From UHGV virus genome UHGV-0079480: a stretch of 23,636 bases of DNA; one strand, written 5' to 3'. Positions 3,001 to 6,000 of the stretch are shown here, one piece after another. The stretch is from a virus. Each line of letters starts with the position of its first letter. Position 1 is the stretch's first letter. Position numbers: made by a program.

Positions 3001-6000
3001 TCTGGCAATGTGGTCAAAAAAAGCGGGAGTTGATGGTATCACTGCGGGGATCGGGATTGTCGCCGGAAAAGACAGTGAAGGCAGGCCTGTAAGTCAGGTT
3101 GCAATTTCTGCGTCGCAGTTGTTTGTCTTTGACCCGAACAACCCGGATAACACCGCCTATCCGTTTGCGGTATCAGGTGGCAAGGTTGTGATCCCGAAAG
3201 CGATGATTTATGACGCGGTGATTGAAACACTGGTGTCGCGGAAGGTTGTGGCGGATGAGGTAAAAGCCGGGGTAAGTATCACTTCGCCAGTTATCCGGAG
3301 TGCCGTTATTCAGAACGGAAACTTTCAGGTTGATTCTCAGGGTAACCTGAATATTGGAGGCCTTTTCAGTGTTACGTCACAAGGGCAACTGACAATTCGT
3401 TACTCTAATCAGAATGTAGGACTGGTGATCCGCAATGATAAAATTGAGGTTTATGATCAGAATGGACGACTGGCTGTTCGCATAGGCAGATTACGCTGAT
3501 CAGGAGGTGAGTATTGGAATACGGTTTTGCCATTTATAACAGAAATAACGTTAATGTTACGGGCGTGCTGACTCCGGTATTTTTCCTGGACAGATTTACA
3601 GCGGAGTCTGGCTCAAAGACGTACACGAATAAACCCGACGGGAAATCATTGCAGGCTGTATGTTGTTTATTTCCCTGGAATAATGTATTTGCGGATCGGA
3701 AAGTACCGAAGATAACCATTAATGGCAATACGGTGACGTGGTCGAATCTTGAGCAGGGTATGGGATCTTATATTTATACATTCTGGGGATAAGTGTCATG
3801 TATGGTTTGAGCATTATGAAGCCGGATGGCAGCGTATGGATAAGTCCAGGTTTTACGCCGCAGTGTCTGATCAACAAAGGCACCATACCGGCGACTGAAA
3901 AGTCTTTTTTTAAAACATCAATCCCGTCAGGCAAAAGTTGTTTTTTCTTTATCAGAACAGAGAAGAAGGCCGATGTCATGTACACGCATGAACAGATTGA
4001 TGGATATCATGCACTAAGGCTTCATGTAATTGTCAGGGGAACGAACCCTGGTGTTACGACGGTTTATGCTTTCGCGAATATGGTTACTCCACCTTCTGAG
4101 TATGGTATCGCCATGTATAACCCGGACGGTGAGATGATTTATCATGGCGAAATGATGCTGCTTGACGCGAAGTTAATACCTGTTGATATCAAATTTGAAA
4201 AGGACCTTGGATATCCATGCGCAATCATGCCTGCACTGGTCGGGTATTATAACTGGAAAAGAACTCCTTATGATCGACCGATTTATACCACATCCACTGG
4301 TGCTACAGGAAATAAAATATATTCCTGTGAGCATTATTCCGGTGGTGCAACATGGGATATTCGAAAGCCGTATATAGATAAGGTCCTGGTTATTAATACA
4401 TCAGTATATGATTAGTTGAAGCGAGTCTTTAATATTCATTTAAAATGTCTAAAAAGATGTATTATTAAAAAGTTTAGCGTGTTATCTGAATACAGGATAT
4501 CTTAAATGAAGAGTATAGCAACACTGGTTGTGTGTGCAATCTCCGGGATTGCCTGTGTAAATTTATCTGCACATGCAGCAGAAGGAAACCATACAATTTC
4601 TCTGGGGTATGCGCACTTTCAGTTTCCGGGACTGAAGGATTTTGTAAAGGATGCGACTGCTCATAACAGGGAGACTTTCAGTCATTTCGTCAACAGAAAC
4701 TACTTTTCTTCATTGGGCGAATATACAGATGGTCGGGTCAGTGGATATGAAGGCAAGGATAAAAATCCACAGGGCATTAATATCAGGTATCGCTACGAGA
4801 TAACGGATGATTTTGGCGTTATCACCTCTTTTACATGGACGCGTTCTCTCACTAACTCACAGACATTTATTGATGTGCAGTCAGCCGATCATACCAGGAA
4901 GATTAAGAATCCGGCAGCTTCTGCCAGAACGGATATCAGGGCGAATTACTGGAGTCTGTTAGCGGGGCCTTCATGGCGGGTTAATCAGTATATGAGTTTA
5001 TATGCGATGGCAGGGATGGGCGTTGCTAAAGTTAGCGCTGACCTGAAAATTAAGGACAATATTAACAGTAGTGGCGGATTTTCTGAAAGCAACAGCACGA
5101 AAAAAACCTCCCTTGCGTGGGCTGCAGGTGCACAGTTTAACCTGAATGAGAGTGTTACACTGGATGTGGCTTACGAAGGTTCCGGCTCTGGCGACTGGCG
5201 CACGAGTGGCGTTACTGCTGGCATTGGCCTGAAATTCTGACCTGTATCCGGTAACCGTTTACTACCCGCTGTGATGGCGGGTTTTTTATTGCCCGTACAG
5301 GGCAAAAACCGTAAATTATGCGTGGGTGCCTTTCGGCTGATGGCTGGAGGGAGAACCTGAAGGCCTGATGTGGAAAGGCCCCGAGTCAACTTAACGTTAA
5401 CCCGAGGCCCTAATCATCATACCTTAAGCAAGTAGAAGGTTAGCGCCTCTCTGTAAAAGGAGTCAAGCGCTATGTCGCAAAAATCGCTTATCACCGTCAC
5501 AATTTGTATGACGGTTATCTTCACTATCTGGATGTTGCACGGTTCGCTGTGTGAGTTCCGGCTGAATTTGTGGGGAGCGGAGTTTGCGGCGTTCTTACAG
5601 TGTAAGCAGTAGGAAAACCGCGACGGGGACGAAAGTCCCCGTCAACTGGTTGCTGAGGTTCAGCCGATATGGCACCCGTTTGTAGTGTATGTTTTATACA
5701 ATGCAGGCTGACAGAGAGAGGTAATATTTATCAATGGTAAATAATAACCACAGAAAATGTTTTGTTTTTTCTGAGTAATACTGGTGTTATTTAGGGTAAG
5801 TTTTTGATACGTATTGCATTCTTGTGATTTTAATTATTAATTTTTCTTAACTCATTGATTTTAATATTTTATTTGCCTTGTTATTGTGGGTAGTATCCCT
5901 GAAGACATTTGCGTTCCGAATGTCAACATATTTATAACATGATTTAACATAAGGGTACACATCATGAAAAAGGCAAGCAAGCTATTGTTGGCTTTAATGC

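Follow-up and report, generated by a model that had tools for sequence, protein, structure and literature searches.

A predicted second, mok-less hok/sok-type module beside the hokW-type locus of a Shiga toxin prophage

What is the 46-codon reading frame that lies between a lom-like and an Eib-like gene in the viral genome UHGV-0079480, and by what means would expression of its Hok-like product be held back? Prophages are known to be enriched in Hok genes, and O157 strains have an abundance of them. The window, i.e., the whole stretch of 23,636 nucleotides (nt) analysed here, carries two loci of this family, and one of them had originally been read, from the sequence alone, as a type I toxin locus of the Hok family for which an upstream antisense RNA was expected. 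This core interpretation is supported by family models, by conserved RNA structure and by the literature. The reading favoured here, to which a probability of about 85% can be assigned, is that a complete hok/sok-type (type I) toxin-antitoxin module occupies approximately positions 5289-5677 and represents a second, divergent paralog beside the canonical mokW/hokW/sokW locus of the same Shiga toxin (Stx) prophage. Within its ~390 nt the module combines a predicted promoter, pairing of the 5' and 3' ends, an internal hairpin resembling a Shine-Dalgarno (SD)/anti-SD structure and a 3' protective stem-loop.

The open reading frame (ORF) at 5472..5612 on the plus strand starts with ATG 5472, ends with a TAG stop at 5610-5612 and encodes a peptide of 46 amino acids (aa), MSQKSLITVTICMTVIFTIWMLHGSLCEFRLNLWGAEFAAFLQCKQ. 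As originally described, it is preceded by a strong SD, AAGGAG at 5457-5462 (+), 9 nt ahead of the ATG, and displays the full Hok architecture: residues 6-22 are strongly hydrophobic (mean Kyte-Doolittle value of ~2.3, computed by hand from the sequence), SLCE occupies residues 25-28, and the AAFLQCK tail residues 39-45. The Pfam model HOK_GEF (PF01848) matches residues 8-44 over profile positions 6-42 of 42 at 33.2 bits (gathering score, 22; E=4e-8), a likeness beyond chance. The best NCBIfam model is HokA (NF007290), but its equivalog cut-off is missed (38.4 bits versus 89), so the peptide is a Hok but not a HokA ortholog. In alignments identity is 28% to Hok of plasmid R1 and ~30% to HokW, and the conserved residues are kept: all seven positions that the logo of a recent survey shows as conserved in over 80% of Hok peptides (M1, C16, T18, L30, C31, E32 and E41) have counterparts here (M1, C12, T14, L26, C27, E28 and E37).

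A database search places the peptide in a compact subfamily, nearly all members of which are 46 aa long, with identities from 98% down to 59%. The subfamily extends over Escherichia coli, Shigella, Salmonella, E. albertii and Citrobacter; its members in E. coli, Shigella and Salmonella bear the name Hok/Gef family protein, and M1, Q3, K4, M21, C27, A39, F41 and the LQCK motif are invariant in it. Family models, homolog search, alignment and the selection analysis given below thus identify the ORF as a genuine Hok-family membrane toxin gene.

As a toxin gene, the locus at 5472-5612 is already known. The window DNA is 100% identical to several chromosomes of Shiga toxin-producing E. coli, where RefSeq/PGAP annotates the ORF as Hok/Gef family protein WP_000078907.1, and to phage phiSTEC1589-Stx1c (PQ600364.1); the stretch 5241-5681 is 98% identical to phages 933W, VT2-Sakai and many other Stx phages. 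The description of the gene as unannotated holds for older phage records, such as that of 933W (AF125520), which has no feature between lom and L0129, but not for RefSeq or for NC_029120, where the ORF is labelled ‘MokW-like host killing’. In PQ600364.1 the names given to the lom-like gene (‘virulence determinant Bor’), to the YadA-like gene (‘terminase large subunit’) and to the Hok ORF (‘hypothetical protein’) make the annotation of this region look unreliable.

The peptide is identical to 72_1589 of Escalera-Maurer et al. (bioRxiv 10.1101/2025.08.07.668861, 2026). The preprint reports that 72_1589, a member of the high-abundance cluster 72 together with 72_1621, was cloned as pAZ3-72_1589 under an arabinose promoter and was toxic on induction; 42 of the 45 Hok homologs assayed there were toxic, the exceptions being 19_179, 60_1482 and 69_1540. 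The preprint deliberately confines its analysis to the coding sequence, leaving mok, Sok and mRNA structure undefined, so the RNA anatomy of the 5472 locus adds to its peptide-level account. A literature search for a hok locus next to lom in 933W found no paper, the supplements of a Ribo-seq study of small genes in strain Sakai (PMC5597208) hold no entry for the 46-aa peptide, and hokE is the only hok mentioned in a ciprofloxacin transcriptome paper on enterohaemorrhagic E. coli.

The RNA anatomy begins with a predicted promoter at 5289..5317 (+), composed of a -35 element TTGCCC (5289-5294), a 17-nt spacer and a -10 element TAAATT (5312-5317), from which transcription would start 6 nt downstream, at G5324. 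With 8/12 matches to the consensus it lies under the threshold of a promoter scan, and the layout TTGCC-17-TAGATT-6-GGGTGCC is repeated in homologous loci whose farther upstream flanks are unrelated. The 5' end of the predicted mRNA, GGGTGCCTTTCGGCTGA at 5324..5340 (+), is the equivalent of the tac element, as judged from the folds, the start of conservation and the start of Rfam model RF01794. This model, named sok, matches 5324..5485 on the ORF strand over its full length with 36.4 bits (E=3e-6; gathering score, 59); it represents the sense-strand hok leader, since its consensus spans GGGUGCUUGAG to the AUG.

The minimum-energy fold of 5324-5682 (359 nt) has an energy of -152.9 kcal/mol (z=-6.6 versus shuffled sequences) and joins the two ends of the RNA. 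GGGUGCC (5324-5330) pairs with GGCACCC (5671-5677), and UCGGCUGA (5333-5340) pairs with UCAGCCGA (5660-5667), a conformation that hides both the SD and the start codon. The 3' partner in this closure, TCAGCCGATATGGCACCC at 5660..5677 (+), is a fold-back element like fbi and forms the right end of the conserved module, conservation ending with GGCACCC. A further long-range helix joins 5643..5659 (+) to 5421-5435, just upstream of the SD. In a truncated RNA, 5324-5646, the 5' segment GGGUGCCUUUC is predicted to pair instead with GGAAAGGCCCC (5372-5382), leaving the SD, which is paired in the full-length fold, and the AUG unpaired in the centroid structure. According to these in silico folds, 3' truncation would produce the tac/fbi to tac/ucb switch known for R1 hok (PMC9841398). 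Together with a hairpin that carries GAGG (5404-5407), the ucb/anti-SD-like box GGAAAGGCCCC makes up the element 5372..5411 (+), which emerges from the Rfam alignment, the folds and the alignment with the canonical locus and is the counterpart of the Sok-targeted mok SD/anti-SD hairpin in canonical hok mRNAs.

Between the stop codon and the fold-back element stands a GC-rich stem-loop, GACGGGGAC/GAAA/GTCCCCGTC, at 5622..5643 (+), visible in the sequence and in the folds and aligned with the post-stop hairpin of the canonical locus. The hairpin had been noted at these positions; its stem has 9 bp rather than the 8 bp proposed, and it is not the fold-back element for which it had been taken, that role falling to 5660-5677, 17-34 nt past the stem-loop, through pairing with 5324-5340. 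In R1 hok the last stem-loop of the processed mRNA guards against 3' exonucleases (PMC9841398), and by analogy 5622..5643 would be its equivalent, blocking such exonucleases here.

Homologous loci from representative genomes and from IMG/VR proviruses, 40 distinct versions of which were aligned, show which parts of this anatomy are maintained. Conservation spans GGGTGCC, beginning exactly at 5324, to GGCACCC, with otherwise unrelated flanks and the promoter retained just upstream. When the structure of the window is laid on the alignment, 92.9% of cells form standard pairs, versus 37-43% with partners slid by 1-3 columns. Double changes occur at 23 pairs, a number reached in 0/500 shuffles, with the caveat that a single sequence of the alignment supplied the structure. 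Helices 1 and 2, which close the ends (5324-5340/5660-5677), are paired in 96% and 87% of cells, with three double-changed pairs in helix 2; helix 6, in the 5372..5411 region, is paired in 92.8%. Helix 7 (5421-5435/5643-5659) has compensatory double changes at three pairs, in 11, 18 and 18 sequences. Helix 19, the stem-loop 5622-5643, is paired in 99.7% of cells, and two of its pairs swap, A-U/G-C and C-G/A-U/G-C, in 16-21 sequences.

The toxin ORF is intact in 40/40 loci, with a length of 135-141 nt (138 nt in 37 of them). Stx-phage-type copies differ from the window by no nonsynonymous and up to seven synonymous substitutions, the between-cluster ratio of nonsynonymous to synonymous substitution rates (dN/dS) is 0.2-0.36, and the peptide is under purifying selection. 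These data bear on the idea that the locus is a decayed, non-functional remnant, no longer expressed or toxic, like several inactivated chromosomal hok loci. Such decay would fit the loss of the mok frame needed in R1, the weak scores against curated models (36.4 versus 59 for Rfam, 38 versus 89 for NCBIfam) and promoters that are weak by consensus. It is nevertheless very improbable given an ORF of near-constant length in every locus, the dN/dS values, compensatory changes that preserve the long-range helices and the 3' stem-loop, the spread of the 46-aa subfamily over E. coli, Shigella, Salmonella, E. albertii and Citrobacter, and the toxicity reported for the induced peptide.

The comparative set consists mostly of IMG/VR proviruses, as the scan of representative genomes gave only 7 loci, three of them under implausible organism names. 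These three are E. coli-like copies on contigs labelled Xanthomonas pisi, a Planococcaceae metagenome-assembled genome and Vagococcus sp. (L003, L004 and L006); the X. pisi contig is 857 bp long and 100% identical over the matched peptide residues 1-43. The copies under these labels probably reflect contamination or mis-binning. A version of the module with ~76% peptide identity is found at the end of P2-like prophages beside ihfA/pheT (L005 and L009 in Salmonella; L052, L057, L060, L072, L077, L080 and L081 from IMG/VR), and several predicted proviral contigs terminate 3 nt past the stop codon of this version. The presence of the module in unrelated phage types indicates that it moves between them and behaves as a self-contained mobile cassette.

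An antisense partner is a well-founded prediction from the sequence. The probable Sok-like RNA, ~58 nt long, would extend over 5372..5430 on the minus strand, its ends being placed from the position of its promoter. The minus-strand fold consists of a ~20-nt single-stranded 5' tail, a 16-bp hairpin (5411 to 5375) and UUUCC (-26.5 kcal/mol, z=-4.8); with a modelled start near 5430, ~7 nt past the -10 element, this combination of tail and hairpin would have the shape of Sok. The predicted promoter at 5437..5466 (-) comprises a -35 element TTGACT (5466 to 5461), an 18-nt spacer and a -10 element TAACCT (5442 to 5437), and overlaps the hok SD region on the opposite strand. At the equivalent place the canonical locus of the window has TTGCCT, 17 nt and TAACCT, with an identical -10 element, and the corresponding region is where sokW was mutated for inactivation in phage Sp5 (primers YO-421/422; Takada et al., PMC8621323). 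AGGTTAG, as read on the plus strand, is nearly fully invariant over the 40 loci; TAACCT agrees with the consensus at 3/6 positions, which is why the promoter went unreported by the scan. The antisense RNA had been expected at roughly 5390-5470: a Sok-like promoter and hairpin are indeed predicted on the opposite strand, but the predicted body of the RNA (~5430 to 5372) overlaps that interval only in part.

On the plus strand, in the segment 5359-5394, an ATG at 5368 and a GAAGG box 4 nt upstream of it are conserved, being shared by at least 90% of the 40 aligned versions. The ORF that starts at this ATG has 8 codons in the window (MWKGPEST) and from 8 to ~60 elsewhere, and its frame relative to hok varies; conservation of this ATG may reflect the 3' end of the antisense RNA, not coding.

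The single real departure of the 46-aa subfamily from the hok/sok paradigm is the lack of mok. No conserved mok was found as an in-frame extension, as an out-of-frame overlapping ORF or by a start at the canonical position: where the canonical locus has the mok ATG, the alignment shows ATC here (5416-5418), and the toxin frame is interrupted by an in-frame stop at 5454-5456. Upstream ORFs among the 40 loci range from 8 to ~80 codons in differing frames, with no frame conserved. In R1, hok is translated only when mok is translated as far as the hok SD (PMC9841398). The present subfamily would therefore have to initiate directly at its own SD, which in the window is AAGGAG, ahead of the ATG.

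From these elements a working mechanism may be proposed. A constitutive promoter would yield an mRNA of ~355 nt from G5324, in which the pairings 5324-5340/5660-5677 and 5421-5435/5643-5659, together with local helices, would bury the SD and start codon and keep the full-length transcript stable and silent. Slow 3' trimming to the stem-loop 5622-5643 would strip off the fold-back element, and the released 5' end would then pair with GGAAAGGCCCC (5372-5382), opening the leader. As long as the prophage is present, the short, unstable antisense RNA (~5430 to 5372) would pair with the opened leader, and the duplex would presumably be cut by RNase III. Once the antisense RNA is gone, the 46-aa peptide would be made by translation starting directly at AAGGAG/ATG, with no mok leader, and its N-terminal helix would enter the inner membrane, with collapse of the membrane potential.

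Several observations weigh against this interpretation of the locus as a complete module. The RF01794 score of 36.4 bits is below the gathering score. A consensus promoter scan of 5200-5980 reported nothing, neither promoter reaching threshold, so that it is from homology and conservation only that both were assigned; the antisense RNA and the sense and antisense transcription starts are predictions. The terminator scan found no recognisable intrinsic terminator 3' of the fold-back element in the window, and in the Sok-like RNA no more than UUU comes after the hairpin. A large share of the covariation falls within sequence that is coding or read on the sense strand as well, and for this reason is not attributable to the antisense RNA specifically. 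Lastly, as mok is mandatory in R1 and absent here, the control logic of R1 cannot apply unchanged.

The same window also holds a canonical mokW/hokW/sokW-type locus at 19668-19992 (-), and thus two Hok modules. RF01794 scores 119.5 bits there, at 19818-19992 (-), and a 70-codon Mok ORF (19668-19880) contains an in-frame Hok of 51 aa, MKQQKAMLIALIVICITVVVTALVTRKDLCEVRIRTGQTEVAVFTAYESEK; the DNA of this locus is ~91% identical to that of 933W/Sp5. The possibility that the ORF at 5472..5612 is hokW-sokW itself was rejected: HokW has 51 aa and starts with MKQQKAM, and the primers of the hokW-sokW study (YO-357 and others; PMC8621323) match 19668-19823 (-). Phages 933W and VT2-Sakai each hold both loci. 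Predicted duplex energies are -119 and -115 kcal/mol for the cognate antisense/mRNA pairs and -53 and -32 kcal/mol for the heterologous ones, and these models suggest that the two antisense RNAs of the window do not cross-react.

The surroundings of the 5472 locus offer another explanation of its role. As originally placed, the toxin ORF lies between an Ail/Lom-family gene (4506..5240) and the YadA-like (Eib-like) gene (5964..7175). The left neighbour of the module, outside it, is the intrinsic terminator of the lom-like gene at 5264..5287 (+), with an 8-bp stem (5264-5282) and a subsequent T-run. On the right, similarity to 933W-type phages ends at ~5681, immediately after the fold-back element; a recombination joint therefore adjoins the module, and a clear terminator of the hok mRNA is not left in the window. 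The adjoining stretch 5678-5963, up to the YadA-like gene (5964-7175), is very AT-rich, and 933W carries L0129 there. The location of a hok locus directly downstream of late-operon genes in the same orientation makes lytic read-through plausible. The gene could then be an accessory lysis gene of the late operon: Q-antiterminated transcription would pass the lom terminator, producing mRNA with an improper 5' end and overrunning the antisense promoter, and Hok would be made only in lytic growth, helping to permeabilise the membrane. Such a role would suit its position after the tail-fibre and lom genes, with only the terminator 5264-5287 in between, and its own strong SD with no mok. It also has a precedent in the paralog hokW-sokW of Sp5, where, as reported, mitomycin C leads to loss of the antisense RNA and production of the toxin, lysis is aided and phage release rises about two-fold (Takada et al. 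2021, PMC8621323). This explanation appears unlikely, however, because a conserved promoter of its own and the complete 5'/3' lock are kept in non-lambdoid contexts, at the ends of P2-like prophages by ihfA/pheT, which argues for autonomous regulation; lytic expression would moreover be compatible with a toxin-antitoxin mechanism and not exclusive of it. The original suggestion that the locus might stabilise the cargo island around it is speculative; hokW-sokW, the sole prophage hok locus of these phages to have been studied, is reported to act in lysis and phage release.

Further sites in the window deserve mention. On the minus strand the 3' stem-loop (5621-5644) is followed by CGGTTTTCCT and looks terminator-like in the scan; the site could block antisense-direction transcription reaching the toxin gene from downstream. 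Rfam RF02221 (sRNA-Xcc1) matches twice, at 21952-22037 (-) and at 22488-22572 (-), with 74.5 and 53 bits, the latter being exactly the gathering score.

The reference Stx phages 933W and VT2-Sakai/Sp5 thus carry a pair of Hok loci instead of a single one, and the second receives no discussion in the functional study of hokW-sokW. The primer sequences of Takada et al. indicate that their hokW-sokW deletion kept the 5472-type locus in place, so the phenotypes of the deletion lysogen were measured with it still present. It is tempting, if rather doubtful, to go further and suppose that the mok-less module of the whole cluster-72 subfamily is regulated unlike R1, with direct initiation of hok and no cross-reaction between its antisense RNA and sokW, and that in Stx phages it is redundant with hokW-sokW. 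Were this so, Stx phages would own two independently controlled membrane toxins, and the redundancy could explain why deletion of hokW-sokW alone cut Sp5 release only about two-fold. A subfamily with the entire hok mRNA switch but no mok is in any case a natural test of how far control of Hok needs mok. The practical value of the locus lies mainly in annotation and experimental design; in other respects it is unremarkable within a very well known family.

Comparison with three known systems places the 5472 locus within this family. HokA of E. coli K-12 shares with the peptide the MxQK start, the WM...SLCE core and the AAFLxCK tail with its C-terminal cysteine, whereas the two fall into separate 60% clusters (93 for HokA, 72 for the peptide) in Escalera-Maurer et al. 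With hokW-sokW of Sp5/933W the locus has in common the phages, the protein family, the layout of the mRNA and the -10 hexamer of the predicted antisense promoter, but the two lie ~13-14 kb apart on opposite strands, HokW is 51 aa long with ~30% identity to the 46-aa peptide, and the in-frame 70-codon mok of hokW has no counterpart at 5472. With hok/sok of plasmid R1 the predicted RNA shares the fold-back lock, the 3' stem-loop of the processed mRNA and the switch of the 5' element to the upstream box after trimming, and the predicted Sok-like RNA, like R1 Sok, would be directed against the leader and would combine a single-stranded 5' tail with one hairpin. R1 Hok, in contrast, has 52 aa against 46 here, at 28% identity, and mok, mandatory in R1, is absent; the R1 locus resides on a plasmid and is known for post-segregational killing, whereas the 5472 locus occupies a moron position in the late region of a phage.

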